This document shows, in pieces, positions 1,647-64,000 of a stretch of DNA of 64,000 nt (positions within the stretch are counted from its first letter, which is position 1; the number at the start of each line of letters is the position of its first letter). The notes beneath the pieces were generated by a model. It made no database searches, was not told where the DNA came from, and saw only the letters and a list, made by a program, of their open reading frames with translations. The position numbers and the translations under genes were made by a program. This DNA is from Centroscyllium fabricii (taxonomy: Eukaryota): assembly GCA_051313645.2 (NCBI GenBank), contig JBNRSN020000025.1:69688001-69752000 (forward strand). The letters are read 5' to 3'.

Positions 1647-2065
1647 CAGGTTGGGTACCATTAATCCGGCACCCGAGAAACCGGCAGCTTCAGACGCCCG
1701 GCAATGATTCCGACTGCCCTGCGCATGCGCAAAATGGCCACCACGCGTGGCTGCGCATGCCCGGGCCTCCCCAACTGGACTGCGCATGCGCAACATGGCC
1801 ACCGCGCTTGGCTACGCATGCCCGGGCCTCCCCGAACGACTGATGCTTCGGCGAGCGCATAGCATTCAAAATTTAGCAATGGCCATTTTGAATGATCTGT
1901 GCATGCGCCGCCAAACCACGAGCGCATGCGCAGACCATTCAAAATTTTGCGGCGGCCATTTTGAACGGTCTGCATACACGCCGCCGAAGCTTCAATCATT
2001 CGCCATTTTCAAAAATTCGGCACGGTCCTGGCCTCAACCGTGCCGGATTAACGAAGCTCAACCTG
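1647..2065. mobile_element. TA-target MITE, CAGGTTG-TIR family (copy 1)
   Basis: Termini ta|CAGGTTGGGTACCATTAATCCGGCA...TGCCGGATTAACGAAGCTCAACCTG. Multiple GCGCATGCGC and AAAATGGC motifs. Confidence 0.8.
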
Positions 2066-2387
2066 TGCTGGTCCTCAAAGGCTATGAATCAACCACCAGA
2101 CCAGTGTTGGGAAAGTTCACACTTAACAAGAGCTAGCTCAAAGTTCAGTTCAATCATTTTAAAATGAACTAGTTCAAGTTCATAGTTCATAATTTTGAAT
2201 TTTGAACTTAAGTTCGCAGCTCAAAAATGAACTAGTTCAAAGTTCGTTTTTTTTTCCTTTTCTTCTAATGCGCTGCCCCGAGCTATTATTTTTCAATAGA
2301 ACATCCTCAATGCAAATTATGAAGCAGGAGGAACAAATATCCGATATAGAGAACTGTCTGTATGTATATACACAGGCTGAGTATATA

Positions 2388-2755
2388 GGGCGGCACGGTG
2401 GCACAGTGCTTAGCACTGGAGACCCGGGTTCAAATCCAGCCTTGGGTACTATCTGTGTGGAGTTTGCACATTCTCCCCGTGTCTGCGTGGGTTTCCTCCG
2501 GGTGCTCCGGTTTCCTCCCACAGTCCAAAGATGTGCAGGGTTAGGTTGATTGGCCATGATAAACTGACCCTTAGTGTTAGGGGGATTGAATATATGGGAA
2601 TAGGGTGGGATATGTGTCAGTGCAGGCTCGATAGGGATCGAGGGATAATGGGGAGAGGGCAGGGGCGGGTTACAGGGTTTGGATGATCAGCCATGATCTC
2701 ATTGAATGGTGGAGCAGGCTTGAAGGGCTGAATGGCCGACTCCTGCTCCTATCTT
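2388..2755 (+). mobile_element. tRNA-derived V-SINE (HE1-like)
   Basis: ggcggcacggtggcacagtg head, V-domain and CR1-like tail. Near-identical to 48498-48893 in reverse. Confidence 0.85.
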
Positions 2756-2767
2756 TCTAAATATGAG

Positions 2768-2967
2768 NNNNNNNNNNNNNNNNNNNNNNNNNNNNNNNNN
2801 NNNNNNNNNNNNNNNNNNNNNNNNNNNNNNNNNNNNNNNNNNNNNNNNNNNNNNNNNNNNNNNNNNNNNNNNNNNNNNNNNNNNNNNNNNNNNNNNNNNN
2901 NNNNNNNNNNNNNNNNNNNNNNNNNNNNNNNNNNNNNNNNNNNNNNNNNNNNNNNNNNNNNNNNNNN
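2768..2967. other. assembly gap (200 N)
   Basis: Run of N. Confidence 1.
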
Positions 2968-3490
2968 GTACCCAGTAACAAGACTGACATTAACTGCAAG
3001 CAAAGTTTTTAAAAAGGGACAGCGGCAAAGGACCCAAAGTGAATGGTTAATACTGTATTGGAAGAAACATTGCAGAACTTTCGGCAATACAATAGAAACT
3101 ATTTATAACAATGGTTAGAACAGAAGGTCCCTCACTGTGAAGTTGCAGGCAGGTACAAACTATCCCTCGTGTATCAGGGGAGGGGGGGGGAAATTCAGAT
3201 CAGTGATGTTGATCACGAGCCAGCATTCATTCCATTGGGCAACTGCACTGCTGATTCCTGCATTGCTGATTGCAGTTTACCCTCAACCCCAGCATCATCT
3301 TATACAAGAGGATACCTCCACTCTGCGATTCAAAATGCCATATTCACTTTTACAACATAATTAGAAAATTCCATCTGTGAACATGTACAACAGTGCACAC
3401 ACAGACAGAACTGAACTCATGTGATGCAAGACTGGACATTCATTTTCTTTTACTGGACTCCACCAGATCTCTAGTGGTTGCAGTACAGTA

Positions 3491-3840: not shown

Positions 3841-5747
3841 TACTTATCGCAGTTTACCGCACAGAAGGCTCTTCAACACATCCTGTCTTTGCCGGCTCTT
3901 TATTAGAGCAATCCAAAACTAATTTCATTGCCTTGCTCTCTTCCCCAGAGCCCTTAAAAGATGATTCAGCTACTCCCTGTGGCAAAGCATTCCGTGCCTC
4001 ACACTCAGTAGAAAATGTTAAATTGCTGACGTCTCACCACTGACTCCTAGTCTTTCCCTAGTCACCCTATCAAAATCCTTCATACTTGCAAAACATCTTT
4101 TTTTATCTCCTTAGTCTTCTCTGCCCCAGTAAAATTAGTCCATGGAACTCAAGACTCTCCTCGGATCTGGTTTCTCATCCCTGGTATCATTCTGGTTATC
4201 TATTCTGTATGCTCCCTATAGCTTTAATGCCCTTTCTATTATGGGGTGTCTACCTTTGCACATAGTACTCGAACTGTGACCAAAGCATAGACTTGTACAA
4301 ATTTATTATAATCTGTTCATTCTTGTACTCTGTCCCCTTATTTATAAAACCCAACATGTCATTGGCCTTTTTATAGTTTTATCTACCTAGATTTGCAAGG
4401 AATTACATATTTAGATCTCGATGTCTCTGTTCCCTCACAGCTTTCAGCACATTTCCATTCAGTTTATGTTCCAATTTCTTGTTTTTCCTGCTAAAGTGCA
4501 TCACCTCTCATGCATCTTTAAACACTCATTAATTATGGATTCTAAGAGTTATAGTGGGGTCTTTGCAATTTGATCAAACATGGCCATGATGTCTTCCATG
4601 TCTTGTAATACACTTTTCCCATCATTTTAGTCCAATTCAAAACTTTGTGCATAAATATACTACTTTACTAATGATTTTAATCCTTCATCTCACATTTCTA
4701 CAAAATGTTCATCTCTTCTGATAAGTGAAGCTTTGTGATTGTAAACCAGTAACTAGGTCAGCATGGTTCCCAGGTTGGGAGCATTACCGTGAATACACAA
4801 ATCATTGTGATGGACTGTACCACAAAGAGCAGTAGTTTCCTACACACGCTACTAATCTGGTCTAGTCGAGCGCTGAAGCTGGTTAAATTATTCATCTGAC
4901 ATTAAAAACAAAGTCACATAGATCATTTTATAAAGCCTCGCTTACCTAAAAACCAAAGATTAACCAAAAACCATCATGAGGCAGAAGGCTCGGTTTGAAA
5001 TGAACGTGGACATTAAGGTTTACTCATATTTCTCAGAACCTCTTGCCAACTTTCATCCCTGAAGGCACCGACACTTTGCCAGGGAATGATTCCATTGGTG
5101 GCAATTGCCCTTTGGTATCTCACCCAAGCAATCATTATTTATGTATGAACGTGGACAGTGAGTATCGGCAGGCAATTTGGTCATAAGGGATGTCATAACT
5201 TAGCCCAATCCTGTCCTCAACCAAAATCCACACACGTGCACTTTCAGGAGGGATGACTGCAGTGATCAGAGCAGAAACCATTGCCCATTTCCTCCTCCCT
5301 AACCCATGGATTTTGAGGCCAATTTTGGGTACTATTCTCTTGGGTACAATCAGGACGGACCAAGGATTGAACCTGGAACCTTTGTGGTCTACATGGCTCC
5401 ATTAAACACTAGATTATGCTATTGGGGGAGCCTTCAAAGATTAATGAAAATAATTCCCTCCCCCGGCCTCAGAAATCAGATTTCAGTATCAGTCGAGTTA
5501 TATCCATCCCTCTGTCTATTTTTGCTTTCTGTAGTAATGGAAAAAAAAAATCAATACATGAATGATAATACAAAGATCAATATAACTGGATAACCAGGTT
5601 AATAACTTAATTCACCAAATTTTATTGGGGTTTGAATGTTAGCTATAGCAAAACTAAAACTCCCAGATGTTTGTCACTCCACTGGCATAATATGCAAGCA
5701 CAAAAGCTTTAAATACTCTCTCTTTAGTAATATCACAACTGCTAATA

Positions 5748-6568
5748 CAGATTGAGCACCGGTAATCCGGTAACCATTAAGCCGGCAGCTTCAGTTGTCG
5801 GCATAATTTGCCCCGACTGCCCTGCGCATGTGCAAAATGGCCGCCGCAATTGATGCTTCGGCGAATGATCGGCACATGCGTCGCCGAACGGCGAGCGCAT
5901 GCGCAGATCATTCAAAACGGTCGCCGGAAGTTTTGAATGATCTGCGCATGCATGGCTCCAAGAAGAGCACGGAAAGGTAAAAGGGGCCGTTGTGTTAAAG
6001 CCGGGCGGAGAGTTTGAAGAATGAGGAGACGGAGCCGCTGGACTGACCGCCTGGGCTTGAAAGGACTCCTCGGGCGCGCCCCTGAGCCCAGTTCTCTTTA
6101 AAGGGGTCGCGCGGCGCTGCCTGGCTTCAAATGTCCCGGGTCCCCGCAATCCCGCCGCAAGCTCTTCACTGCCGGCAAACCGGGCGCAGCCCCGCCACCC
6201 CTTCCCCCCGGGGGCGGCAGCCAGTTTGCTGCTGTACTTTGTGCCGGCTCTCTGTCCCGGGTCTGGACTTTGCACCGATTCCATGGGCTTCGGCCCCGCT
6301 CAGTTAGAAATCTCTGCTCAGAGTCGCGGGGAGAGAGAAAGGAACCAGGCATTTGGTTAAAAAGTGGTGTGCCTCATTTTAATTTTTAAAAAGTACATGA
6401 GTTTCGAATTCTTCAGAACTTCGGCGGCCATTTCTAATGTTATGCGCATGCGCGTGGCCATTTTGAATGGTGCGCGCATGCGCACTGGCCGGCTTCAGCC
6501 TTCTGGTTTTTTCGGTATACCGGCGCAGGTCTAGTGCCACCCGTGCCAGTATAACGGTGCGCAACCTG
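5748..6568. mobile_element. TA-target MITE, CAGGTTG-TIR family (copy 2) with unique GC-rich cargo
   Basis: ta|CAGATTGAGCACCGGTAATCCGG...ATAACGGTGCGCAACCTG|ta. Arms resemble the other copies. Centre ~5960-6400 is not shared with them. Confidence 0.75.
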
Positions 6569-6729
6569 TACTCAAATAGAAAATTGTGAAGACAATTGGG
6601 AAACTTTCATCAAACCTAGAAAAAACGTGCCATATTTCTTGGTTATTTTCATGACGTTACACACGTTAAAAAAAATTTTTTCATAAAGAACTGATAGTAT
6701 ACAGACAGTCTTATTCAATGCAAACCTAC

Positions 6730-7478
6730 CATACACAATCTCTGGGGGGGTTTTGGAGTTTAATTGTTGTGATTCATTTTCCTCTACCTCTTTCTCCTCC
6801 ACTTCAGCAGATTCCTTGCTTTCCACATCTTGATCTTTGTCATCACTAACAGGAGCTTCCTCACTGTCCTCTTCCTCTGCTGGGACTTCCAGGCTGGTGC
6901 AAACAGCAACAGGGGAAGGTGGCATCTCCACCGTTGCTTCTGTCCGAAGCATATCTGCAATCTCCACATTAGCAGATAATGGAGGAAGGTCTTGTGATAC
7001 ACTTTCTAAGGTGCTTTGTGTTTCTTCCTGTCCTACAATGCCATTTATATCTTTAATTGTATTAACAGTAGCAGGCACTGTGATTTCATCAGCTGGAGTA
7101 ACAATCACTTCTACAGGTAGATCTTCACTGGCCTGCTCTTCTTGTTTATCATCTTCCACCTCCGTATGCAAACATAAGTTAGGTGCAGGGTTCTGCTCTT
7201 CTTTGGGAATGGATGGCCCAGACTCCTCAGCAGAATCCAAAGCTGGGAAAACAGAAACTACCAGTGAGTTGCTAGAAGCAGGTTCCGCCGTTGCCGCCTC
7301 TTCCCTTCCTCCTCCTTCTCCTCTGCCTCCTCCTCCTCCTCTTCTTCTTCCTCCACTTGTAAAGGGACAGGATCAGGATCAGGAGGTTCTCCGTCAATCT
7401 CTTTCTTTTCTATAACAGTTTCCGATCTGATGTCCGGTGAAGCACTTTTCACCACTGGTTCCTGCTTTGGTTTCTCTT
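6730..7478 (-). CDS. EIF4G3: EIF4G3 large acidic exon (EEKPKQEPVVKSASP...LNSKTPPEIVY) with an apparent 1-nt frameshift near 7303
   Basis: Acceptor tttttgctctcacag|AA and donor TATG|gtaggt. Ends match human eIF4G3 EEKPKPDPVLKSPSP and SQNLNS. Length 749 nt; 750 is needed for phase 1-1. Split across ORFs 7258..7521 and 6572..7240. Confidence 0.88.
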
Positions 7479-7977
7479 CTGTGAGAGCAAAAAGGAAGCG
7501 CATTTTAGTATCTATACCCATTGTTTACAAAAATCAATAGTTTATGCAATTATATATTTAATCCTTATTGTAAACAAAATATAAGCTAGTTACATTGTAA
7601 CGCAAAATACTTGACAGTTATTACAGGCCACTCACTGGAAACCTCTCCAGGAACATAACACAGAAATATAGCAATGGAGGGAGTAAAAACCATTCAGCTC
7701 CCCAGGTCTCAGTTGCTGATCCTGATCAGACCATAGAAATATTTTGGTTTCTAAAATTGAAGTTCAATTAATAACTTTGCTCTTATCGCAGTCTGAACCA
7801 CTGACATATTTATTGTGATGCCAACTAGGAAAATGCACAATTATTGTTTTGGCTAGTTTAATGAATTAAATTAATTTAATACAATAAAAAACACCTTTTA
7901 AATGAAATAAAGCTTTCCACATTCACTTTTAAGACTACATGCTCATCTTTAAAGTACCAAACAGTGCTAGAATGTAA

Positions 7978-8154
7978 AATAACACAACAGAAAATGCTGG
8001 AACAACTCAGCAGGCCAGGCCGCATCCGTGGAGAGAGAAACTGAGTTAACGTTTCGGGTTCTGGACCCTTGAACCCGAAACGTTAACTCAGTTTTTCTCT
8101 CCACGGATGCGGCCTGGCCTGCTGAGTTGTTCCAGCATTTTCTGTTGTGTTATT
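7978..8154. repeat. Near-perfect inverted repeat (84-bp arms, 9-nt loop), probably Penelope-like-element derived
   Basis: 7978-8061 is the reverse complement of 8071-8154 with one mismatch. A related fragment lies at 29452-29542. Confidence 0.85.
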
Positions 8155-8479
8155 CAGATTTCCAGCACCCACAGTATTTTGCTATTATATTAGTGCTATA
8201 ATCTATGCAGTTTGTACTCAGATCAGGACCGTGAAAGTGACGGGCTCCGAACACAGGGAATGAAATGAACTGCCCTGTTACCTTCCAAGAATCACTTCTT
8301 GAAAACGACAACCTATATAAGCGAATCCTAAAGACTATTACCCTTGAAGAGTTGCTATAATGGGTTCTCATGTCTCTTCTTTAAGGTACTCCCTCACCTG
8401 AAGCATTGCTAAATAATTCTGGCCAAAGCACAATAAAACAATTATTGATTATGTAGTTTTGTCTAGAACTTTAGATTAG

Positions 8480-11400
8480 CGATGGAAAAGGACAAGGAGC
8501 AATCTAGAGTAAAACGACTTAATTGAGGAGTGCCAATTCAGTGGGTTGAGAACGGATCTGGCCCGGGTAAACTGGAATCAAAGACTGGCAGGCAAACTGT
8601 AATCAAACAATGGCTGCCTTTAAAGAGGAGTTGGTTCGGGTAGAGTCGAGGTACTTTCCCAAGGGGGGGGGGGGGGGGGGGGGGGGAGGGAGGTGGAGCA
8701 ACCAAAGTCAGAGCTCCCTGGATGACAAAAGAGTGAGCAAGATGAAGCAGAAAAAGGGGGGCGTATGACAGATATCAAGTTGAGAATACAAGTGAGAACC
8801 AGGCTGAATATAGAAAGTTCAGAGGGGAGGTGAAAAGGAAATAAGAGGGGCAAAGAGAAAGGATGAGAATAGATTGGCAGCGAACATAAAAGGGAATCCA
8901 AAAGTCTTCTATAGGCATATACATAGTAAACGGGTAGTAAGAGGAGGGGTGGGGCCAATTAGGGATCAAAATGGAGACCTAGGTATGAGGCAGAGGCATG
9001 GCTAAGGTACTAAATGAATACTTTGCCTCTGCCTTTACCAAGTCAGAACGTTCAAGAAGCATTTGGATGAGCACTTGAAATGCCACAGCATACAAGGCTG
9101 CAGACCAAATGCGGGAAAATGGGATTAGTATAGACTGGGATGATGGGCGGCATGGACGCGATGGGCCGAAGTGCCTCTTTCTGTGCTGTATTACTCTATG
9201 ACTCTATGTTGCCCTAAGTCACAGCGAAAGAGGAGGTAGGTGAACTACTGGATGGGCTAATAATTGATAAAAGAGGAGGTTCTAGAAAGGCTGGCTGTAC
9301 TTCAAGTAGATAATTCACCAGGACCGGATGGGATGCATCCTAGGATGTAAAGGTGGAAGCTGCGGAGGTACTGGCCATTATCTTCCAATCCTCCTTAGAT
9401 ACTTGGTGCCAGAGGACTGGAGAATTGCAAATGTTACAGCCTTGTTCAAAAAAGGGTGCAAGGATAAACCCAGAAACTACAGGCCAGTCAGTTTAACCTT
9501 GGTGGTGAGGAAGCTTTTAGAAACGATAATCAGGGACAAATTAACAGTCACTTGGACAAGTGTGGATTAATTAAGGAAAGCTAGCACAGATTTGTTAAAG
9601 GCAAATCGTGTTTAACTAACTTGATTTGAGTTTTTGATGAGGCAACGGAGAAGGTTGATGAAGGCAATGCGGTTGATGTGGTGTTCAAGGACATCCAAAA
9701 GGCATTTAATAAAGTGCCACAGAATAGGCTTGCCAGCAAAGTTGAAACCCATGGAATAAAAGGGACAGTGGCAACATGGATACGAAATTGGCTGAGTGAC
9801 CGGAAACAAGAGAATAGTGGTGAATGGTTGTTTTTCGGACTGAGGAAGGTATACAGTGGTGTTCCCCAGGGCCGGTACGAAGACCACTGCTTTTCTTGAC
9901 ATACATTAATGACTTGGATATACAGGGCACAATTTCAAATTCGCAGATGCCAGAAATCTTGGAAGTATAGTGAACAGTTGAGGAGGATAGTGATTGACTT
10001 CAAGAGGACAGAGACAAGCTGGTGGAATGGGTGGACATGTGGCAGATGAAATTTAATGCAGAAAAGTGTGAAGTTATATATCTTGGTAGGAAGAACGAGA
10101 AGCAATATAAACTAAAGGGTACAATCCTAAAGGGGATGCAGGAACAGAAAGATCTGGGGTATGTGTGTACAAATTGGTTGAAGGTGACAGGGCAGGTTGA
10201 GAAAGCGATTTAAAAAGTTTACGGGAGACTGGGCTTTATAAATAGAGGCATTGAGTACAAAAGCAAGGAAGTTAAAACACTGGTTCAGCCTCAACTGGAC
10301 TATTGTGTCCAATTCTGGGCACTCCATTTTAGGAAGGATGTGAAGGCCTTAAGCCCCGCTTTCACTGAGGCTACGAATATGGCGATCGTCCCGAATCTGA
10401 AATTTGTCTGGTTCGTAGATAATTCTCAAACGTTTCTTGCAGTTCTTAAATGATTCTTAGTTGATTCTTAGTTGATTCGTAAACATTCGTACAGTTCACG
10501 TGAGTTCGTCGATCCGGCACGAATGTTTTTGCTTGTCAAAAACTTTCGTGGGAGGGTGCACGAATTTCAAATTCGTACATGCATCGTAAACACTTCGTGA
10601 ACCTTCTGATCATTAGTAACCGCTTCGTATCGTTCGTACCGCTTCGTAATCGCTTCTTCTGCATTCTGGCCTATTCTTGGGCATTCGTGACTCCCTCAAA
10701 TTCGTGGACCCACGCCGAATACATCACGAAACAGGCACGAATGTCCACGAATCAAGTACGAATCGGTCGTAGTGGATTCGTACAATAATTCGGCACATTC
10801 GTAAGTGAGTCGTACCTTATTCCTTAAATTCTTACCTGATTCTTTGAATTCGTACTTGTTTCTTAAACCATTCTTGACGTTAGCCACGAATCATTCGTAA
10901 CAAATTCGTAACAGCTTCGTACCTCCTCCCGAATCTCCACGAAATTTCTCATTTTTTGCCGAATCTCCACGAATTTCGATTCGGGACGATTCGGCATATT
11001 CGTAGCCTCAGTGAAAAGGGGGCTTAAGAGAGGCTGCAGAAAAGATTAACAAGAATGGTTCCAGGGATGAGGGACTTCAGTTACGTGGATAGACTGGAGA
11101 AGCTGGGGTTGTTCTCCTTAGAGCAGAGAAGGTTGAGAGAAGATGTGATAGAGGTGGTCAAAATTATGAGGGGTCTGGACAGAGTAGATCGAGAGAAACT
11201 GTTCCCAATGGCGGAAGGAGTGAGAAACAGAGGACACAGTTTTAAGGTGATTGGCAAAAGAACCAAAGGCGACGTGAGGAAAAACCTTTTTACACAGCGA
11301 GTGGTTAGGATCTGGAATGCACTGCCCGAGAGGGTGGCGGAGGCAGATTCAATCTCAGCTTTCAAAAGGGGAATTGGATAAACACCTGAAGGAAAAAAAA

Positions 11401-16318: not shown

Positions 16319-16589
16319 CAGGTCCAGCACCGTTAATCCAGACACCGTTAATCGAGAAACTTCAGTCGTCCGGCACGAATCCGGCCTCTCCCCGACTGGT
16401 CTGTGCATGCGCAGCGGCCATTTTGAATGGCTGCACATGTGCGGCGGCCATTTTGAATGGTTTGCACATGTGCGGCGGCCATTTTGAATGGTCTGCGCAT
16501 GTGCTCGCCAAAGCTTCAGTCGTTCGGATTTTTCACTAGTCCAGCACTGGCCTAGTCCCGACGGTGCCGGATTAACGGTGTCGGACCTG
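16319..16589. mobile_element. TA-target MITE (copy 3, short CAGGTCC subfamily)
   Basis: ta|CAGGTCCAGCACCGTTAATCC...GGATTAACGGTGTCGGACCTG|ta. Three tandem gcggccattttgaatgg units. Reverse homolog of 36244-37039. Confidence 0.8.
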
Positions 16590-19659: not shown

Positions 19660-20853
19660 CTGGGATTTGAGGTACAACAGGTGAGGATAATGAGGGTGCG
19701 GACACAAAAACTAGCACATGGAACACGCAACAGAGAGGAAAATAAGCAAAAAGGTTTTCCATAAAATTCCACAGTAGGACAATAAGTTTAGGAACAAAAA
19801 GCAAAACCAAAAAGAAGAGATGGAGTAAGCAGGAATGAGAAGGAAAAGAAAACAGGATTACCATTAACAGCAAGGATAGACAACAGACAGAACTCGAATA
19901 CATTCTCTGTGTTCCCTCTAAGAGTCCTTTTTCATCGATTGAGGACTGGCCAATTTCTCGCAATAAAACAAGTTCTATTTATCGTTTTCCCTCCCTTTCA
20001 TTAACCCTTTCTGGAAAGTCTGAGCCAGATGGTCGCTGACGACATCAGTTTATTGCTGATCATTCGTGAAGGTTTTCGATCGAAAAACATTGTAGCAGAA
20101 GCATAACCAGAAAGTAAATTTAACGATTTCTGAGAGTAATTTTTTTTAAAAAGACAAGCAGTTAACTTATATGTTAATTTTAAAGAGTTTGGTTGTTAAT
20201 AACTTTAATTTTATAGTCATTATACACTAATGCCTGTATCTCTAAATACTAGCACTCATTCTGGTTCGTTGATTCTGAATAGATTTAATTGACCTAATTT
20301 TTACAAATTGGTCAACAGATCAATAAAATACTACAGCTTCATTTTTTGAGTTGGTGAATTAGGGGAGTAACAAATCAAGTATTCAGCTGTTTTACTCTTT
20401 ACATATATTAAAATAACACTGCTTTTTACAGGTGACAGTAGACAGCACTCTCTAATCCGATTTAAAATTTACTAAAAATATACTTGTCAATTTCTGAGAT
20501 CTGCTCACAAGCCTCTACCAATATAACTGTCAGGAAAATGGCCAACTATCATAACAGGGAGGGGGGGGGTGGAAAGAGAGAGAGAGAACCGGGAAGAGAA
20601 AGAGAAAGGGGCAGCTTCTTTTTCTGCGCCAACCTTCATTTTTCACTTCCCCACAAGAGAGATTTAAAGACTAAGTCTGTAAAATTAAAGAACATGAACT
20701 GGTAGCTCATTACTTCCTGGGCCAGTTCTTGGAGCTCCATCACTGCACCTCTACCACGTAGCCAAGACCACCATTTTCAATTTATACCGCTCCGTGACAC
20801 ACAGCAGAATCGAGTGCGAGTTCCACCCGACCCGTGGGCCGAACATCAACTGG

Positions 20854-20999
20854 CAGGTACCGGCGAGCGCATGTGCAGAGCATTGAAAATTTTGCGTCGG
20901 CCATTTTGAATGTTCTGCGCATGCGCCGCCGTGACTTCAATAATTCGCCGTTTTCAACAATCTGGTCCCGGCCCTGCCGGATTAATGAACTTCAACCTG
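20854..20999. mobile_element. Partial TA-target MITE (copy 4, one arm)
   Basis: ...GCCGGATTAATGAACTTCAACCTG|ta, with gccattttgaa and gcgcatgcgc motifs. Left boundary approximate. Confidence 0.65.
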
Positions 21000-22474: not shown

Positions 22475-25336
22475 CAGGTTGAGCACCGGTAATCGGGCAC
22501 CTGATGGTCCAGCAAATTCAGTGGCCCGGCACGAATCGAAACCGGTGCTCTTCAGTTTGTGGAGCAGCTGCTCGGCGGCGCCGCCATTTCCCGCGAAGGG
22601 TGGGCGAGCACCGAAGACGTTGAGCGTTTGGGTTTCTGGTTTTTCAGTTCTTGTAAGTGTTCTATCCCCGGGCTCCTTCGCGGGGAGTGTTCGACCCGCG
22701 CGCTCCGGGCCCCGGGGAGTGTTCGACCCGCGCGCTCCGGGCCCCGGGGAGTGTTCGACCCGCGCGCTCCGGGCCCCGGGGAGTGTTCGACCCGCGCGCT
22801 CCGGGCCCCGGGGAGTGTTCGACCCGCGCGCTCCGGGCCCCGGGGAGTGTTCGACCCGCGCGCTCCGGGCCCCGGGGAGTGTTCGACCCGCGCGCTCCGG
22901 GCCCCGGGGAGTGTTCGACCCGCGCGCTCCGGGCCCCGGGGAGTGTTCGACCCGCGCGCTCCGGGCCCCGGGGAGTGTTCGACCCGCGCGCTCCGGGCCC
23001 CGGGGAGTGTTCGACCCGCGCGCTCCGGGCCCCGGGGAGTGTTCGACCCGCGCGCTCCGGGCCCCGGGGAGTGTTCGACCCGCGCGCTCCGGGCCCCGGG
23101 GAGTGTTCGACCCGCGCGCTCCGGGCCCCGGGGAGTGTTCGACCCGCGCGCTCCGGGCCCCGGGGAGTGTTCGACCCGCGCGCTCCGGGCCCCGGGGAGT
23201 GTTCGACCCGCGCGCTCCGGGCCCCGGGGAGTGTTCGACCCGCGCGCTCCGGGCCCCGGGGAGTGTTCGACCCGCGCGCTCCGGGCCCCGGGGAGTGTTC
23301 GACCCGCGCGCTCCGGGCCCCGGGGAGTGTTCGACCCGCGCGCTCCGGGCCCCGGGGAGTGTTCGACCCGCGCGCTCCGGGCCCCGGGGAGTGTTCGACC
23401 CGCGCGCTCCGGGCCCCGGGGAGTGTTCGACCCGCGCGCTCCGGGCCCCGGGGAGTGTTCGACCCGCGCGCTCCGGGCCCCGGGGAGTGTTCGACCCGCG
23501 CGCTCCGGGCCCCGGGGAGTGTTCGACCCGCGCGCTCCGGGCCCCGGGGAGTGTTCGACCCGCGCGCTCCGGGCCCCGGGGAGTGTTCGACCCGCGCGCT
23601 CCGGGCCCCGGGGAGTGTTCGACCCGCGCGCTCCGGGCCCCGGGGAGTGTTCGACCCGCGCGCTCCGGGCCCCGGGGAGTGTTCGACCCGCGCGCTCCGG
23701 GCCCCGGGGAGTGTTCGACCCGCGCGCTCCGGGCCCCGGGGAGTGTTCGACCCGCGCGCTCCGGGCCCCGGGGAGTGTTCGACCCGCGCGCTCCGGGCCC
23801 CGGGGAGTGTTCGACCCGCGCGCTCCGGGCCCCGGGGAGTGTTCGACCCGCGCGCTCCGGGCCCCGGGGAGTGTTCGACCCGCGCGCTCCGGGCCCCGGG
23901 GAGTGTTCGACCCGCGCGCTCCGGGCCCCGGGGAGTGTTCGACCCGCGCGCTCCGGGCCCCGGGGAGTGTTCGACCCGCGCGCTCCGGGCCCCGGGGAGT
24001 GTTCGACCCGCGCGCTCCGGGCCCCGGGGAGTGTTCGACCCGCGCGCTCCGGGCCCCGGGGAGTGTTCGACCCGCGCGCTCCGGGCCCCGGGGAGTGTTC
24101 GACCCGCGCGCTCCGGGCCCCGGGGAGTGTTCGACCCGCGCGCTCCGGGCCCCGGGGAGTGTTCGACCCGCGCGCTCCGGGCCCCGGGGAGTGTTCGACC
24201 CGCGCGCTCCGGGCCCCGGGGAGTGTTCGACCCGCGCGCTCCGGGCCCCGGGGAGTGTTCGACCCGCGCGCTCCGGGCCCCGGGGAGTGTTCGACCCGCG
24301 CGCTCCGGGCCCCGGGGAGTGTTCGACCCGCGCGCTCCGGGCCCCGGGGAGTGTTCGACCCGCGCGCTCCGGGCCCCGGGGAGTGTTCGACCCGCGCGCT
24401 CCGGGCCCCGGGGAGTGTTCGACCCGCGCGCTCCGGGCCCCGGGGAGTGTTCGACCCGCGCGCTCCGGGCCCCGGGGAGTGTTCGACCCGCGCGCTCCGG
24501 GCCCCGGGGAGTGTTCGACCCGCGCGCTCCGGGCCCCGGGGAGTGTTCGACCCGCGCGCTCCGGGCCCCGGGGAGTGTTCGACCCGCGCGCTCCGGGCCC
24601 CGGGGAGTGTTCGACCCGCGCGCTCCGGGCCCCGGGGAGTGTTCGACCCGCGCGCTCCGGGCACCGGGGAGTGTTCCACCGCGCGCTCCGGGCACCGGGG
24701 AGTGTTCCACCGCGCGCTCCGGGCCCCGGGGAGTGTTCCACCGCGCGCTCCGGGCCCCGGGGAGTGTTCCACCGCGCGCTCCGGGCCCCGGGGAGTGTTC
24801 CACCGCGCGCTCCGGGCCCCGGGGAGTGTTCCACCGCGCGCTCCGGGCCCCGGGGAGTGTTCCACCGCGCGCTCCGGGTCCCGGGGAGTGTTCCACCGCG
24901 CGCTCCGGGCCCCGGGGAGTGTTCCACCGCGCGCTCCGGGCCCCGGGGAGTGTTCCACCGCGCGCTCCGGGCCCCGGGGAGTGTTCGACCCGCGCGCTCC
25001 GGGCCCCGGGGAGTGTTCGACCCGCGCGCTCCGGGCCCCGGGGAGTGTTCGACCCGCGCGCTCTGGGCCCCGGGGAGTGTTCTACCGTGGGCTCCATGGA
25101 GTGTTCTACCGCGCGATGCGGGCCCCGGGGAGTGTTCTACTGCGCGCTCCGGGGAGTGTTCTACCACGTGCTCTGGGCCCTGGGGAGTGTTCTACCGATC
25201 GCTCCGGGCACCGGGGAGTGTTCTACCGCGCGCTCCCCCGAACCTTCAGTGGTTCAGAATTTTCAGTGGTTCAGAATTTTCAGTGGTCCGGCACCAGTCC
25301 GGTCCAGAGGGCGCCGTATTAACGGTGCTCAACCTG
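22475..25336. mobile_element. TA-target MITE (copy 5) inflated by an internal minisatellite
   Basis: ta|CAGGTTGAGCACCGGTAATC...ATTAACGGTGCTCAACCTG|ta. Arms are collinear with 50600-50897. Confidence 0.88.
22681..25236. repeat. GC-rich minisatellite, 32-bp unit cggggagtgttcgacccgcgcgctccgggccc, about 80 units
   Basis: Exact 32-bp period (15 units per 480 bp) to ~24660, then 31-bp variants. 26 of 32 bases are G/C, with 6 CpG per unit. Confidence 0.98.
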
Positions 25337-34483: not shown

Positions 34484-35003
34484 CAGGTTGAGCACCGTTA
34501 ATCCGGCACGGGCGGGACCAGGCCCGTGCCGGGAAAGTGAAAATCCCAAACGATTGAAGCTTCGGCGAGCGCAGACCATTCAAAATGGCCGCCGCGAAAG
34601 GCTGGTGGCCATTTTGAGTGGTCTGCGCATGCACTTATCGTTCGGGGAGTCCCGGACCGCGTTCAGCGAGTCCCGGCACAGCAGCGTTCGAGGAGTCCCG
34701 GCCCAGCCCGCACTCGAGGAGTGGAATCCTGGCCCAGCCCGCGTTCGAGGAGTCCCAGCCTAGCCCGCATTCGAGGAGTCCCGGCCTAGCCCGCATTCGA
34801 GGAGTCTCGGCCTAGCCCGCATTCGAGGAGTCCCAGCCCGCAATCGGGGAGTCCATTGTGAATGATCTGCGCATGCGCAGATCATTCGCTGAAGCATCAA
34901 TCGCGGCAGCCATTTTGCGCATGCGCGGGGCAGTCGTGGAAATTATTGCCGGACGTTCGAAGTTGTCGGTTTTTCGGGTAACGAATTAACGGTGCTCAAC
35001 CTG
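34484..35003. mobile_element. TA-target MITE (copy 6) with a 26-bp internal minisatellite, nested in CR1
   Basis: Splits the CR1 sequence gaggtgTA|caagattatg with a duplicated TA. TIRs CAGGTTGAGCACCGTTAAT. About 7-8 units of cattcgaggagtcccggcctagcccg. Confidence 0.9.
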
Positions 35004-36243: not shown

Positions 36244-37039
36244 CAGGACCGACACCGTTAATCCGGCACCGTCGGGACCAGGCCGAAGCTTCGGCGAGCG
36301 CATGTGCAGACCATTCAAAATGGCCGCCGTACAGGCGCAAACCATTCAAAATGGCCGCCGCGCATTTACCCCGGGTTTAGAGTTAATGTGGAGATATATT
36401 GATATTTAGTGATATTTACCTCAGGTTTTCCAATAATTTTGAATAATTTGAGTATTTTTACCTCCCGTCGCTCACCAAGCCCGAGATGAATTTTTCCATC
36501 TGATGCCCGGCCACCATTTTGGGTGAGACTGCCCGCCCACCTCGGCCTTGGCTAGTCATAGCAGGCGCTGCCCACTCCCGTTAACTGAGAGCGGCCTGGG
36601 CTGGCATAAAGCTGGGGGGGGGGGGCGGGCTTCGAGTGTCATGCGGCCATTGGGAAGCCGAGGTTGGATTTGGAGGTGTGTGTCTGACGGCCATCTTCGT
36701 ATAGGGAACGTATGTACTCTTGGTGAGCGTGGCAGGTGGTGAGCCGGCCATCTTTGTAAAGGGAAGGGCGAATTGCGTTATGATGGTAACCCAACCAAAC
36801 GTTGACGTACTTTGACAGAATGGCATGCAAAGCGACGGCAGCCATCTTGGTAAAGGCGCCCGAAGCCTGGAAGGAAAAGGAAAACATGCGATTCCGCAGC
36901 GCCTTTCACCACCTCAGGCTGGCCAAAAGCGCTCGACAGCCAATGCGCATGCGCATACCAGTCGGGGAGAGTCCCGGATTTGTGCCGGACAACTGAAGTT
37001 TCCGGATTAACGGTGTCCAGATTAACAGCGCCGGACCTG
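36244..37039. mobile_element. TA-target MITE (copy 7) with ~570 bp of extra internal sequence
   Basis: ta|CAGGACCGACACCGTTAATCC...AGATTAACAGCGCCGGACCTG|ta. Arms match 16319-16589 reversed. Confidence 0.8.
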
Positions 37040-37900: not shown

Positions 37901-38355
37901 CAGGTTGAAGTTCGTTAATCCGGCACGGGCGGGACCAGGCCCGTACCGGACAAGTGAAAATCCCGAACGATTGAAGTTACAGCGAGCGCATGCGCAGACC
38001 ATTCAAAATGGCTGCCGCGAAAGGCCGGCAGCCATTTTGAGTGGTCTGCGCAGATGTTTGGGGAGACCTGGCTCGGGGAGGCTCGCAGCGGCCAGGCTCG
38101 GGGAAGCTCGCAGCGGCCAGGCTCGGGGAAGCTCGCAGCGGCCAGGCTCGGGGAGGCTCGCAGCGGCCAGGCTCGGCTCGGCCATTTTGAATGATCTGCG
38201 CATGCGCTCGTCGTTCGGCGGCGCATGCGCAGATCATTCACCGAAGCATCGATCGCGGTGGCCATTTTGCGCATGCGCAGGGCAGTCGGGCAAATTATTG
38301 CCGGACGTTCGAAGTTGCCGGTTTTTCGGGTGCCGGATTAACGAACTTCAACCTG
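37901..38355. mobile_element. TA-target MITE (copy 8) with a 25-bp internal minisatellite
   Basis: TIRs CAGGTTGAAGTTCGTTAATCCGGCA...TGCCGGATTAACGAACTTCAACCTG|ta. About 4 units of ggctcgggga(g/a)gctcgcagcggcca. Confidence 0.88.
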
Positions 38356-42838: not shown

Positions 42839-42843
42839 TCGTT

Positions 42844-50599: not shown

Positions 50600-50897
50600 C
50601 AGGTTGAGCACCGGTAATCCGGCACCCAATGGTCCGGCAGCTTCAGTGGTCCGGCATGATTGGAAACCGGTGATGGGTGAGCAAGCGGCAAAGGCGTCGG
50701 GCGTTTGGGTTTCTGTTTTTTTAGGTTTGGTAAGTGTTCTGTCCCCGGGCTCCCTCCCGGGGAATGTTCTACCGTGCACTCCGGGGCCCGGGGAGTGTTC
50801 TACCGCGCGCTCCCACCGAATCTTCAGTGGTTCGGAATTTTCAGTGGTCCGGCACCGGCCTGGTCCCGAGGGTGCCGGATTAATGGTGCTCAACCTG
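50600..50897. mobile_element. TA-target MITE (copy 9), unexpanded relative of copy 5
   Basis: CAGGTTGAGCACCGGTAATCC...GGATTAATGGTGCTCAACCTG|ta. Contains only two gggga(a/g)tgttctaccg units. Confidence 0.88.
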
Positions 50898-52486: not shown

Positions 52487-54010
52487 CTGTCACAAAAGCA
52501 AAAAACAAAATTAGTTTTTGTGCAAGTCATTCTTTCCCAACAAAACTTTAAATTCTACAGTTCTGGAATACACATTCAAACTGATTTTCTTGAAAAACGA
52601 ATTGTAACGTTACTTGAAACAACTGCAGGCCTACTGTCTGGTACCATAAGTCTGTTATGTCTCTTTGCAACAGCCCTATCCACTCGATAAGAACATTTTC
52701 AAACCAAAGTCCACTAATCTACAAATGGTATAACAAAGGCCTTAAGCTAAAGACAGACGATAGGTTTCAGATCACTGTTAGCACAGATTCAACCACCAGA
52801 ATTAGCTGCTTCACCAGTAATTTGCAACCAGTTGTTATTTCTCAAAGATTCCACGAGGTGGCTTAACTCAAAGCTGAGCATCATTTCATGAAAGGGGAGG
52901 GGACTGAGGCTCAATTTACCAGCAGAATAAACCTCAATAGCCAATTGACAGATTATAAAATTGTGAAAATTCTTGCACATCATGCCTTTCTGACATAAGG
53001 GGCACATCAAACAAAATTTCTTCTGTTTTTAACAGAAGCCAGTTAGGAAATCAACTAAACATTCCTTGCTTTTAGGTATTCTGGAATAAACCAAACTGTA
53101 TAATAAAACAATATGTACTGTGCCAAAGTTTTTAATAGTCAATTCCTGTTATATAACTACTCATTTTTCCACAATAGGTATGTCACTTGTCAGGAATTCA
53201 TAGTCATTTTATGATGATTTTTTCTGAATGCTTTTAATTCAGTAAAATACGACTCAATGTTTCACATTACTTTTAATCAACTGCAGCTTGATGCACGGTT
53301 GATAACTGAAGTCACATTCAGGTGACAGTATACAAGTTCAACTTTTAGAAAAGCCTTGCTGAAAGAGAGAGACTTTATTAAAGACATGAAAACAGTGTGA
53401 AAAGAAACAAAACCATGCAAAATAAACGATGCCGGGATACTAATTGACTGAAATACTGTCAATGATACGGAGAGAAGAAACGGAGGTACTTGTGCCACAA
53501 CCATAACATCTGTGCAGTGGGGAAGGAGGGAAACAGCGCGTGAACGGACCTTTTTACAATTGGACAGCTCCTAGCAGTATTCTTTTGTTTGGACGGCTAT
53601 CTGTTCATTTGTGACCATTGAGAAACAACTGACATTTTATCAAGAAAATGGCTTGGATTAAGAATTCACCCAAGTTCATACAAGGCCAGTACGTTTTGCA
53701 CTCCAGGAATCTCATCAATATTCGCCCCTCCTTTGCCATCTACAAGGATACTTTCTTGCCATCGGTGCGGCGACCGGACTCCACAGCTTTGCCTAAGTCA
53801 CACTCAACTAGTTGGTTCGAGAGCAGCGAAGTCAAGTTACCTCTACTTATCACATTCCAGGTCACCGTAACTGCAACCTGCAACCATCATGTGGGAGGAC
53901 ACAGTGGAGGGGGATGTTTAGGCCAACAATAAAATACACATCCGTAGCACAATGTGCTTGCGCACTAAGGCATTCCAATACTGGAAACAGAGTACCATGT
54001 GTTTTTTATA

Positions 54011-54570
54011 CAGGAAACTCTCGTTTAAACGGCACCTAAATATCCAGAATTCTCCATTAACCGACAAAATTCAGGAGTAGGTTCAGGTACGTTTTACTGT
54101 ATATTAGTGGCCGTGTAACTGGGGTTCCTGCACCTGTGGCCGTGTAACCGGGGTTTCTGCACCTGTGGCCGTGTAACCGGGGTTCCTGCACCTGTGGCCG
54201 TGTAACCGGGGTTCCTGCACAAGTGGTCGTGTAACCGGGGTTCCTGCACAAGTGGCCGTGTAACCGGGGTTCCTGCACCTGTGGCCGTGTAACCAGGGTT
54301 CCTGCACCTGTGGCCGTGTAACCGGGGTTCCTGGATCTGTGGCCGTGTAACCGGGACTCCTGCACAAGTGGCCGTGTAACCGGGGTTCCTGGATCTGTGG
54401 CCATGTAACCGGGGCTCCTGCACCTGTGGCCATGTAACCGGGGCTCCTGCACCTGTGGCCGTGTAACATGGCTCTCGTACCTTGGTAGGTATACATCTTC
54501 GTTATCCGGAATTTTTAATCAACCGGCACCATCCCGATCTCGTAGGTGCCGGATACCAAAGAGTTTCCTG
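54011..54570. mobile_element. TA-target Tigger-like MITE enclosing a 29-bp minisatellite (~12 units, 54107-54467)
   Basis: ta|CAGGAAACTCT...AGAGTTTCCTG|ta. Unit gtggccgtgtaaccggggttcctgcacct. Confidence 0.85.
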
Positions 54571-59750: not shown

Positions 59751-60477
59751 CATATCTGTACTTGTTTAATATTGAAGAGAAACATGGAGGCAAGATGCCA
59801 ACATTTTTACATTGCTGCTCATCACAAGTGATTATATACTCCAGTGTAAGTGCCAAATTTGAACATGCGGCATATCTGGAGACTTAACACATACTGCACC
59901 CAGATCATGACGGGACAGCTTGCTTTTTTCCTGGTTGCACAGATGCAATGCAGGACAAATCTCAGATTTATTGTTATTCCAACCTGCAATGTCCTGCATG
60001 GACACTGCATCGAAACTCACCCAGATGGTTGTGAACTGGGTGATAATGACTGCCCATCAGCGAGTTGAGTCAGTTACTAAAGTAAGTTACCAAGAAAGTA
60101 AGAAATGCCTCACTATAGCAGAAGGATATTTTGGGGAAGGCAGGGTAACTCAACTGCGGTTTAATTCCCCTCCTTAACAACACAGACACGTAGCTGCAGT
60201 TATGCTGGTAATGTTCTCATTTGGATTTCCAGACAATGAGCTGGCTCAAGCCCGGCTCACGTGACACCACCACACGCCAGCTTCGGAACGCGGCGACATC
60301 AGCATGCAGCGGCCTCCGGCAGCGATGGGGAGCCGGGCGCCGAGTTTTGGCTGTGCTGCGTCCTGCAGAAGGCGGCAACAGCTCATTTTCTGGGCCTGGG
60401 ATTCACGATCGGCATCGGGGTGGTCACTAAGCCAGGATCCAGTGAGTATATGCTGGGGGAAAGGGAAGCCCAGCCCC

Positions 60478-60572
60478 GACAGCAGCCATTTTGAATTGTC
60501 TGCGCATGCGCCGGGCAGTCGGGAAAATATCTGCCAAACGATGAAGCTGCCGGTTTAACGAACTTCAACCCG
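60478..60572. mobile_element. Partial TA-target MITE (copy 10, one arm)
   Basis: gcagccattttgaa..tctgcgcatgcgccgggcagtcggg...ttaacgaacttcaacccg. Confidence 0.6.
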
Positions 60573-61854
60573 TGGTAGGATTTGGACAATACAGTGAATT
60601 GCTCAAGTATGAATTAGTGTGAAATGACAACAGGTTTCACTTAACAATGTCATCTATTGCCTTGAAGAAACATGGAATGGACAGAGCAGCACATTGTTGC
60701 TGCGTCACTGAGTTTCAGGCAGTAGGTTTGTGCCTGGAGTCTCAGTTTCCAATTCAAATCCTACCATCTCAAGGAGGACCCAAATGGCTAAGTACCTCCC
60801 ACCCCCACTCGATAGAAGGGGGCATAAAAAGCACAACACTGGAAAGTTGGTATTGAAAACAAAATCTTAAGTTGCTGGTCTGGGAACAGATTACTACATA
60901 AGGGAAGGGGGGAGCTTTAGAAGGGAAAAAAACGTTCAATAAAATGGCGGTACAGCATTTTGCATTAAAAGTAAAATCACTCGTATGCTTTTTACGAAGT
61001 AGGAACTCAGATTCCAGCTACTTGTAGGCACAGCTCATGTAATGCAGCAGAAGGGCAGGAAAAATCTTCACAAAAAGCTGGGTGAGAATTACAGATATTA
61101 AAAAGGGTCTGGAGAAAGAGAAATGGTAAACCTGTCATTACTGTCTCTCGGGGTTACGTGAACTCAATCTACAATACCTCAACCGCGTGGCACAAGTTTA
61201 GATCACTGACAGGCAGGCACCCAGACTGGATAGGCAGCTGCAAGGGATATTTATTTATCATACATGATAAATAAAAAAAATATACACATAAAGATTATAT
61301 TTTTAAAGTAATCGTTATGCTTGCCAAAAAAGATGTTTTCTTAAATTGAAGTGATACTCAAAAAGAAATCAATATAGTGATAAACATGCGTAACTATTCT
61401 TTAGGCAACATTGCATTTGAAAAAGGCGATACTGACCTTCCGTATATTTTTCACCTGTTCTGTGCTATGTTTGGCTATTATGTTTCCGTGGATCAGCTTT
61501 TGGGCTTAGACAATTTTTGAAAACCGAATGTACCTGTTGAAAAATGTCAGTACACTAGGGTAGCTACAGAACCAGTACTATGAAAACATTAACATCTGAA
61601 ACTTAACCTGCAAGGAGGATCACAGGACACCACTCACCCAACACGTGGGGACGACATCATAACTCAACAACAGCAGTCATGGGATTCATCCTCAGTCATT
61701 AGATAAAAGTGGTATCTTGAACGTCCCAGTACGAGATTCCATCCATTAGAATGGAGAAACTTCTCTACCCCTGCCCCACTTTGTGGGTAGTCTATAACTG
61801 ACTGTATAAACACAATGAATATTTGTGTGAAGGAATGGCTAAGAAATAATATCC

Positions 61855-62730
61855 CAGTCTGCAGGACGATTTAGATGGGTTGGTCAGATGGGCACAACAG
61901 TGGCAAATGGAATTTAACCCTGAAAAGTGTGAGGTGATGCATTTTGGAAGGACTAACAAGGCAAGGGAATACACAATGAATGGTAAGACCCTAGAAAAGA
62001 CAGAGGATCAGAGGGACCTTGGGGTGCATGTACATAGATCCCTGAAGGCAGCAGGACAGGTAGATAAGGTGGTTAAAAAGGCATATGGGATACTTGCCGT
62101 CATTAGCCGAGGAACAGAATATAAGAGCAGGGAGGTTATGATGGAGCTGTACAAAACGCTAGTTAGGCCACAGCTGGAGTACTGTGTGCAGTTCTGGTCA
62201 CCACACTATAGGAAGGATGTGATTGCTTTGGAGAGGGTGCAGAGGAGATTCATCAGGATGTTACCTGGGCTGGAGCGTTTCAGCTATGAAGAAAGACTGG
62301 ACAGGCTGGGGTTGTTTTCCTTGGAGCAGAGAAGGCTGAGGGGGGGACCTGATTGAGGTGTACAAAATTATGAGGGGCATAGATAGGGTAGAGAGAAAGG
62401 AACTTATTCCCTTAGTAGAGGGGTCAATAACCAGGGGCCATAGTTTCAAGGTTAGGGGCAGGAGGTTTAGAGGGGACTTGAGTAAGAACTTTTTCACCCA
62501 GAGGGTGATTGGAATCTGGAACTCACTGCCTGAAAGGGTGGTAGAGGCAGGGACCCTCACAACATTCAAGAAGCATTTAGCTGAGCACTTGAAATGCCAT
62601 AGCATACAAGGCTACGGACCAAATGCAGGAAAATGGGATTAGAATAGACAGGGCTTGATGGCCGGCGCAGACACGATGGGCCGAAGGGCCTCTTTCTGTG
62701 CTGTATAACTCTGTGGCTCTCTGTGACTCT
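61855..62730 (+). mobile_element. 5'-truncated CR1 LINE (same subfamily as 41257-42838)
   Basis: WQMEFNPEKCEVMHFG...RPQLEYCVQFWSP...FFTQRVIGIWNSLP. Highly similar to 41980-42838. Confidence 0.92.
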
Positions 62731-63573
62731 GAGTATTATGCTGGTCATTGCTATCCTATGAACGTTTAACGTGGACATATGAAATTCCTCTGTACGTTAA
62801 AGGAGGAATTAAACAGTTTAGTTAACGCTCATTAAAAGAGTGGACAAAGGAATTTGATACAAACTCATGAAGAGTTTTTAAGATTGCACGACGTGATTCC
62901 CAGGCTGAAATGTCTACGGTGCAACTGTCTAATACTGTAAACACATATCACAGAAATCGTCTTGTGCATTAATCTAACCTGCTGTGAAGGTCTGAAAGTT
63001 TAAAATGACAAAAAAAATGTTGCGTAGTCAAATTAGTGCAAACTGCTGCCCTGAGGAGAGGGTTGGACACTTGGGCCTTCAGAGTGGCTGAAAATTGAAG
63101 TCAATGTTTCCTTTTCCCTTTTTGGGCCACTTGCTGCTGCACGTCTTGAATACAGGAGGGGAGGACAATCTGAGCCCGATGAACATCAGCACCACACTGG
63201 ATCAGCATTTGAAGGTGCAATAAGTCGCCCGCAAAATAAAACTTGAAAAAATATAACAGGATTTAAGCGCTTCACCATAGGAAATATTTTTGAATCGTCA
63301 GGAATGTGGGCATCACTGGCAAGGCCGTGGTTTATTGCCCATCTCCAGTTATGCTGAGAAGGTGGTGGGTCTTCTTTTTGAACTGGTGGTAACAGTTTGA
63401 TACGGCTGAGTGGTCACTTCAAAGGGTAGTTAAAAGTCAATCACATTGGCGTGCAACTGGAGTCACATATAGGCCAGACTGGGTAAGGATGGCGAGTTTC
63501 CTTCCCGAAAGGATTCGTTAAACAGTTGGGTATTTTCAACATACCAACAAATTCATGGTCACTTTTACTGATA

Positions 63574-64000
63574 CAGGTTGAGCACCGTTAATCCGTTAGC
63601 CAAACAACCGGCAGCTTCGAACGTCCGGCAATAATTTCCCCCACTGCGCCGCGCATGCGCAAAATGGCCACCACGATTGATGCTTCGACGAATGATCTGC
63701 GCATGCTCCGCCGAACGGCAAGCGCATGCGCAGATCATTCACAATGGTCTCTCCGAGCTGATAGCGGGCTGGGCCGGGATTCCCCGAACGCGGGCTGGGC
63801 CGGGATTCCCCGAACGCGGGCTGGGCCGGGATTCCCCGAACGCGGGCTGGGACCATCCGAACGATACAGGGCCGGGACTTGCCGAACAATAAGCGCATGC
63901 GCAGACCACTCGTGACTGGCCGCCGGCCTTCCACCGAAGCTTCAATCGTTCGGGATTTTCACTTTCCCGGCACGGGCCTGGTCCCGCCCATGCCGGATTA
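63574..64000. mobile_element. TA-target MITE (copy 11) with a 26-bp internal repeat, running off the window end
   Basis: ta|CAGGTTGAGCACCGTTAATCC. Reverse homolog of copy 6, with ~3 units of cgggctgggccgggattccccgaacg. Confidence 0.85.

Follow-up and report, generated by a model that had tools for sequence, protein, structure and literature searches.

We analysed a 64,000-nt stretch of the Centroscyllium fabricii genome (genome size, 7.2 Gb), here called the window, which lies on contig JBNRSN020000025.1 at forward-strand positions 69,688,001-69,752,000 (G000:C767:69,688,001-69,752,000) and carries eleven pieces of one family of short TA-flanked elements, every one of them within an intron of a minus-strand EIF4G3-like gene (Table 1). 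The best protein matches came from cartilaginous fishes, in keeping with a shark host; the coding exon at 6731-7294 was 71–79% identical to shark EIF4G3-like proteins, and a spliced exon edge at 6730 was seen in contigs of relatives. An earlier note on this DNA had described the family as a modular miniature inverted-repeat transposable element (MITE) whose arms carry clustered NRF1- and YY1-type motifs, and had proposed that it may be a portable promoter or CpG-island cassette.

Its picture of a modular MITE with clustered motifs was borne out. Complete copies have two unlike ends, A and B, which have a terminal inverted repeat (TIR) of about 25 nt in common and diverge further in, towards arms built of recurring modules. 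TA adjoins 15 of the 18 ends of the nine complete window copies and stands on both sides in six of the nine; in a wider neighbourhood of 464 kb (G000:C767:69,488,001-69,952,000), which holds 54 paired A–B copies, it adjoins 86 of 108 ends, consistent with a TA target-site duplication. The TIR is thus well below 40 nt, the copies measure 271–821 nt apart from one expanded by a satellite, and no transposase domain was found in a Pfam scan of 150 of the 187 open frames from element centres. The earlier count of about eleven TA-flanked elements needs amendment: family pieces do lie at or near all the starts that had been listed, but only nine are complete and two are partial. The starts given for copies 4 and 10 (20854 and 60478) are not termini and were rejected, both copies being fragments with other limits. 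Copies 6, 7 and 8 are reversed, and orientation within the host gene is unbiased across the 54 local copies (31:23, p = 0.34).

Table 1 Elements and host-gene exons in the window (flanking dinucleotides given as left/right)
Feature	Position	Strand	Description
EIF4G3-like host gene, six mapped coding exons	~55294-55100, 52486-52376, 47174-47109, 27032-26907, 19662-19573, 7482-6731	-	
Copy 1	1647-2065	+	Complete, A to B; TA/TG; duplicated NRF1/YY1-like modules; no foreign centre
Copy 2	5748-6568	+	Complete; TA/TA; 470-nt GC-rich centre (~5952-6421) of a multicopy subfamily (2,142 candidates)
Copy 3	16319-16589	+	Complete; TA/TA; 31-nt YY1-like plus NRF1-like unit repeated 3.5 times; NRF1 sites decayed by CpG transitions
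Copy 4	20787-20999	+	B-end fragment, TA on right; partial centre of the subfamily seen at L147:370-1101
Copy 5	22475-25336	+	Complete; TA/TA; motif-less backbone; 32-nt unit repeated ~81 times (22681-25236)
Copy 6	34484-35003	-	Complete; TA/TA; NRF1/YY1-like arms around a 26-nt repeat centre
Copy 7	36244-37039	-	Complete; TA/TA; 581-nt centre (36363-36943) with several YY1-like sites, CCAAT and GC boxes; 219 candidates
Copy 8	37901-38355	-	Complete; TT/TA; four NRF1-like sites; 25-nt repeat centre
Copy 9	50600-50897	+	Complete; CA/TA; motif-less backbone without cargo; ends 90–96% identical to L116:8170-8632
Copy 10	60234-60572	-	A-end fragment with centre; same cargo subfamily as copy 4
Copy 11	63574-64000	+	Complete, running 15 nt past the window; TA/TA; 26-nt repeat centre
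Tigger-derived element	54010-54570	+	Non-coding deletion derivative of the coding Tigger family with its own TA-flanked ends; 29-nt satellite (54107-54467); absent from the earlier list

Abundance, transposon class and motif modules

A 24-nt pattern of TA plus TIR had 60,230 exact matches genome-wide, and a control pattern had none, which puts the family at no fewer than 30,000 copies. In 20 stretches of 10 kb placed arbitrarily (200 kb in all) there were five clear A ends, a density that extrapolates, with a wide error, to about 180,000–200,000 copies. An empty site was visible for copy 2: contigs from two runs of one related species join 5745 to 6569, skipping the copy and one TA. Contigs of one organism (C) were rich in the family and those of two others (A and B) gave no coverage over the arms, all three being about 96–97% identical in the EIF4G3 exon; the pattern suggests a lineage-restricted burst.

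The ends of the family are homologous to those of a coding transposon. A DDE_1 search, in which 150 of 1,715 candidates were scored, returned one dominant coding pogo family at 30 of 30 fetched top loci; it is Jerky-like, has DDE_1 and HTH_Tnp_Tc5 domains, and carries a DD32D signature, within the DD29-36D range of Tigger elements. Its 5′ end aligned to end A (score 49.5, against a maximum of 36.5 in 300 shuffles) and its 3′ end to end B (59.5 against 38), and the crossed pairs gave no alignment above shuffles. Non-CpG divergence was 2.8% in the coding family and 2.9–3.0% in two MITE subfamilies. Thirty loci from a second Jerky-like query served only to define the coding family's own ends.

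Tigger/pogo elements have a TA duplication, a short TIR and a CAG start, and JRK derives from Tigger (Gao et al. 2020, PMC7386202; PMC9219625). The shark family agrees with them in all three terminal features, and the Jerky-like DD32D character of its coding relative places that relative in Tigger under the published scheme (PMC7386202). It differs from the coding family as a MITE with no coding remnant, another outer TIR, modular NRF1/YY1-like arms, captured cargo and internal satellites. On sequence grounds, then, the element is a very large non-coding cut-and-paste family of Tigger (pogo) type, likely mobilised in trans by a Jerky-clade transposase. Retrotransposition of the whole element was rejected, given TA at both ends and no tails.

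We infer this partner, since the coding family differs from the MITE in the outer ~12 nt of the TIR and none of the 30 top DDE_1, 20 long-frame and 30 HTH_Tnp_Tc5 loci examined held a coding element whose outer TIR matched that of the MITE exactly. Both the mismatch and the scored share of the DDE_1 candidates leave room for a sister Tigger family with exact MITE termini, unsampled or lost, from which the MITEs were derived and by which they were moved. The end-specific homology and matching age of the sampled coding family argue for that family instead, as do the unrelated termini of the other coding families seen, and we regard a sister family as a serious but lesser possibility. In all, the searches brought up three coding families that are multicopy and a frame, L043, that appears to be solitary; the exact MITE termini were seen in none of them. 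Two loci that had seemed to combine coding sequence with MITE termini (L020 and L027) were rejected as MITE arms joined to a broken Tigger; in both, the A arm is fused to a nearly identical point of the Tigger catalytic region and the B arm is missing. A second coding Tigger family (L044-L046) has open frames of 505–619 aa and is inserted in zinc-finger repeat arrays.

Exact NRF1-like 10-mers (GCGCATGCGC) number 18 in the window, all inside copies, and 110 of the 119 in the 464-kb neighbourhood also fall inside copies. The motif enrichment that had been proposed held against 200 dinucleotide shuffles of the copies (18 NRF1-like 10-mers against a mean of 0.035 and a maximum of 2; 12 YY1-like 10-mers against a mean of 0.2). 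The full NRF1 12-mer occurs only five times. The YY1-like sites mostly depart from the consensus given in the earlier note: AANATGGCG occurs at one of 20 YY1-like sites, and the other 19 read AANATGGCC. Copies 5 and 9 are largely motif-less, as described, but copy 3 likewise lacks an exact NRF1 10-mer, owing to CpG transitions. The window sites are descendants of shared ancestral modules and not independent of one another; the modules probably arose by early capture or in-place duplication and were inherited by descent.

The motif-less backbone of copies 5 and 9 is used by 13 of the 54 local copies and also by the spliced-cargo subfamily described below. Its 32-nt unit has expanded to about 81 near-identical repeats in copy 5, and a similar expansion occurs in a 1,315-nt upstream copy, so this backbone seeds satellites. 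Motif-less copies do amplify, the spliced-cargo subfamily to at least 680 copies, and the motifs are therefore dispensable for amplification. This speaks against the idea that the motifs serve the element itself, with NRF1 and YY1 opening or tethering donor copies in a transiently hypomethylated germline and thereby raising transposition or capture, so that the motifs would be selected among source copies and decay after insertion. For that idea, the modules recur in both arms, as tandem and inverted duplicates and in many subfamilies; unrelated repeats in the same genome also hold tandem YY1-like sites; and decay after insertion says nothing about selection on donors. We nevertheless think it unlikely. 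In four of the arbitrary stretches (L092, L093, L097 and L098) the unrelated repeats carry tandem YY1-like sites spaced 36–60 nt apart, an arrangement that is commonplace in the repeats of this genome.

Host sequence in the element centres

In 38 of the 54 local copies the centre has at least 90 nt outside the commonest modules. Besides the centres of copies 2 and 7 (Table 1), two others belong to multicopy subfamilies with 453 and 451 candidates; such candidates come from genome searches and are not equal to copy numbers. Both end types were present at 89 of 90 loci from three subfamilies. The Pfam scan of centre frames gave one convincing match, to a MAM domain, and three weak ones (E 0.01–0.09) that we treated as chance.

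The MAM-domain piece (E 1.1e-5) is encoded by a copy (L116:8170-8632) that lies within the EIF4G3-like gene, 141 kb upstream of the window, and is 80% and 68% identical to shark apical endosomal glycoprotein, a similarity from which we call the putative source gene MAMDC4-like, a name of our own. That host gene lies on C825, and in 80 kb of sequence compared for its exons only the cargo part of the element aligned. In the 145-nt cargo, the final 61 nt of one exon run straight into the opening 84 nt of the following exon, and the intervening 26,475-nt GT–AG intron is precisely absent. The consensus of 30 copies and the host disagree at 3 of 145 positions; at one of them the consensus keeps an Ile common to two other sharks. 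The copies lie 1.6% from their own consensus. The exon junction was kept in 29 of 30 copies, with distinct right flanks in 29 of 29 and TA at both ends in 20 of 29; a 28-nt junction pattern had 680 exact genome matches, and a protein search returned 1,530 candidates. The cargo has no poly(A) and no target duplication of its own, ends inside a coding exon, and meets the backbone at 3–4 shared nt on each side (by inspection).

The absent intron suggests that this cargo was likely copied from messenger RNA (mRNA), with a complementary DNA (cDNA) fragment as template. A LINE (long interspersed element)-type retrocopy inserted in the transposon does not fit, since the piece lacks both a poly(A) or LINE tail and a target duplication of its own and has short microhomologies at its edges. 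Alternatively, the cargo could have been captured at the DNA level from a processed pseudogene since lost or missing from the assembly. Bat Helitrons did capture existing retrogenes (PMC4224331), and the three differences from the host, with the Ile shared by two other sharks, imply that the cargo predates those host changes. However, the genome has just one copy of the exon that follows the cargo on its 3′ side and just one of the 5′ half of the cargo's first exon, so no retrocopy parent is visible, and a genome protein search, a stricter first look that can miss some matches, showed no multi-exon intronless retrocopy of the gene. We consider a pseudogene source quite unlikely and prefer the mRNA-derived template.

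A second cargo came from CENPW. A CENP-W-like frame begins in a copy 179 kb downstream of the window, again within the EIF4G3-like gene (L148:8918-9406), and a Pfam search returned CENPW host exon 2 at G000:C1:428.97 Mb (E 8e-9) together with 19 weak matches, of which 18 could be aligned to the element. The first host exon is found 10.7 kb further upstream and continues to a GT donor, and neither A nor B family ends occur in the 10 kb that hold it. The cargo, of about 150 nt, takes in 27 codons preceded by ~70 nt of 5′ sequence and breaks off ~10 nt ahead of the donor; ending inside exon 1, it would fit copying from either DNA or RNA. Some centres thus do hold promoter-proximal host DNA, the CENPW 5′ end having a located source.

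Searches for the sources of other centres were negative within their reach. For copy 7, a DNA search gave only family copies (30 loci of 219 candidates, with one end detected at 4 of the 30), and a pattern excluding the junction matched an internal tandem unit. For copy 2, no source was among 30 loci (L207 showed no end in the range scanned), and a pattern taken from a relative's contig had no match; for the two further multicopy centres, searches returned only family copies. In a relative without coverage over the arms, a 349-nt contig matches 132 nt of the copy 2 centre with 21 differences, which suggests that this centre may be host DNA older than the family. In the centres of L326, L133, L209 and L027, GC-rich sequence gives way to what resembles a splice donor, the arrangement of a first exon meeting its intron.

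CpG decay and the promoter proposal

CpGs are retained in an otherwise CpG-poor intron, as had been noted, with an observed/expected ratio of 1.06 inside copies and 0.42 outside. We aligned 25 and 27 copies of two subfamilies, after dropping the query copies and, for a missing end, 4 and 2 of 30 loci. CpG transitions amounted to 9.4% outside motifs, 8.2% at NRF1-like sites (p = 0.28) and 18.1% at YY1-like sites, against 1.2–1.8% transitions at non-CpG positions, and non-CpG motif positions showed no extra conservation (p = 0.64 and 0.17). CpGs in NRF1-like sites thus decayed like those outside motifs, and CpGs in YY1-like sites decayed faster.

Because these copies were top-scoring matches, the test was repeated genome-wide on one arm site with NRF1- and YY1-like parts, allowing transitions at four CpG or at four non-CpG positions. 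There were 15,180 intact sites, 22,836 with CpG transitions allowed and 15,995 with non-CpG transitions allowed, or per position 9.7% at NRF1-site CpGs against 1.3% at non-CpG positions of the same motif (7.5-fold). Terminal CpGs, as a control (10,797 and 15,248 matches), gave 8.3% per position. Among unselected copies, 33 of 55 aligned, with transitions at 8 of 132 CpG positions.

The earlier note had itself named motif decay at the neutral rate as what would tell against a cassette escaping silencing, and the motif CpGs decay as terminal CpGs do, with no protection from methylation-type change. Young age, which it had allowed as another reason for the retained CpGs, fits a median non-CpG divergence of ~3%. 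Copies are young and likely methylated in the germline, with unprotected motifs; methylation blocks NRF1 binding. A portable cassette whose inserted copies escape methylation, are bound by NRF1 and YY1 and serve as promoters or enhancers across the genome is very unlikely: the motif clusters and CpG content, the 15,180 intact sites, the promoter-proximal CENPW DNA of one subfamily and 2,143 contig records over copy 2, mostly on its arms (from a relative's run guessed to be RNA; intronic read-through or DNA would look the same), would suit such a cassette, but the decay rates, the unconserved non-CpG motif positions, the deviation of 19 of 20 YY1-like sites from the consensus that had been stated and the intronic placement of all window copies without strand bias stand against it. 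Promoter function at the level of the family is thus unsupported; individual exapted copies may exist within a family of passengers. The case is a caution that clusters of motifs do not count as evidence of regulatory function when they sit in young GC-rich repeats.

Proposed capture by break repair and comparison with known systems

Starting from the TA insertion with its empty site, the two located host genes, the spliced cargo, the re-transposition and the CpG-type decay, we think it quite probable that these are Tigger-type MITEs, likely mobilised by a Jerky-clade transposase, that have captured host pieces, with an mRNA as the likely template of one of them, and that their motifs are decaying in the way of methylated passenger sequence. 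Capture could proceed by repair: a break inside a copy, after excision or at the GC-rich inverted and tandem modules, would be patched from another template through microhomologies of 3–4 nt. Genomic DNA or pre-mRNA would have served as template where a cargo keeps an exon–intron border; for the spliced cargo the template was likely an mRNA fragment after reverse transcription. The repaired copy would retain both ends and could found a subfamily of hundreds to thousands, whose inserted copies would be methylated in the germline and decay neutrally.

We put forward more tentatively, with slightly greater doubt than belief, that the family routinely mends internal breaks with reverse-transcribed host RNA and promoter DNA, each patch then being amplified a thousandfold. 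Were this so, the family would represent a vertebrate TIR-transposon route, comparable in scale to plant Pack-MULEs, by which gene fragments are duplicated from RNA into DNA, and its cargos would preserve a fossil record of shark germline transcription.

Several observations weigh against our account as a whole. Besides the mismatched outer TIR of the coding family and the coding element with MITE termini that the searches did not find, host sources have been placed for only 2 of ~20 centre types and for none inside the window, and several centres are tandem repeats or nested insertions instead of gene pieces. Aligned with its host over 154 columns, the CENPW cargo shows 12 differences and a 5-nt gap, which exceeds the 5% by which copies differ from their consensus, so that the capture would be older than the burst or come from a divergent allele. 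The EIF4G3 region has 54 paired copies in 464 kb, about four times the density of the 200-kb sample, an excess that lies outside this account. The aligned copies were best-scoring matches, which biases divergence downward, and the CpG decay is an average that leaves room for a protected minority of copies.

Plant Pack-type elements work in the same manner as this family. In animals, a survey of Pack-TIR elements in 100 species found four multicopy cases (1.4%), one example having three copies; multicopy elements include Pack-hAT-N8_XT, with the CAPSL 5′ untranslated region, and Ssk-FB4, and the authors also refer to a Pack-Tigger1 case (Tan et al. 2021, PMC8277862). The survey dropped intronless cargo from multi-exon parents, its main text does not contain the word 'shark', and it proposed template switching at microhomologies for capture (PMC8277862). 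The shark elements agree with animal Pack-TIRs in having host DNA, other than transposable-element sequence, of a few hundred nt between TIR ends (CENPW and MAMDC4-like), parental loci free of element ends for both genes, microhomology at breakpoints and re-transposition after capture with distinct flanks. They differ in subfamilies of at least 680 copies and in the spliced MAMDC4-like cargo, which, lacking its intron, is likely not a DNA-level copy. The family thereby departs from published animal Pack-TIRs, as the survey text describes them, in copy number and intronless cargo; the survey's supplements, outside this comparison, could list further multicopy cases.

Bat Helitrons amplified captured promoters and 5′ gene ends to 4,690 copies from 15 genes, and also brought intronless mRNA copies to high copy number (Thomas et al. 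2014, PMC4224331), and resemble the shark family in this high-copy spread of promoters, 5′ ends and intronless pieces. They are, however, rolling-circle elements whose nested retrogenes (118 copies) have poly(A) and LINE-1 target duplications of their own (PMC4224331), whereas the shark element is cut-and-paste and its spliced piece is internal, truncated at both ends and bears neither LINE-1 hallmark. Double-strand-break repair mediated by reverse-transcription products leaves partial spliced mRNA pieces without poly(A), joined at microhomologies of 1–5 nt (Ono et al. 2015, PMC4516963). The shark piece is likewise partial, spliced, free of poly(A) and bounded by short microhomologies, but the published cases are single events at CRISPR breaks in mouse zygotes, whereas the shark patch would sit in a mobile element and have been amplified by it, a mechanism read from sequence alone. 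No published description of the family, or of a high-copy spliced cargo in a TIR element, was found in literature searches that did not extend to Dfam, Repbase or the bulk of subscription papers.

Gene capture by cut-and-paste elements of animals has been described as rare, mostly single-copy and DNA-templated; here pieces are amplified hundreds- to thousands-fold in a vertebrate, and one of them must have gone through splicing. The family thus offers a large natural dataset on whether RNA templates mend germline breaks and which genes are captured. Because each subfamily has one parent locus and many dated copies, the neutral rate and the decay caused by methylation could be measured directly in a lineage that evolves slowly. 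Mass copies of genuine exons and promoters could also mislead read mapping and annotation in shark genomes.

The window holds other repeats. At 10353-11023 lies a 670-nt element that is AT-rich yet CpG-rich, with inverted ends of ~35 nt and TAA flanks, which sits in a LINE remnant and which we take to resemble a PIF/Harbinger-type MITE. A fold-back at 7964-8168, with 98-nt arms and a 9-nt loop, consists of a repeat shared with one type of element centre, and remnants of CR1/L2-type reverse transcriptase are abundant throughout.

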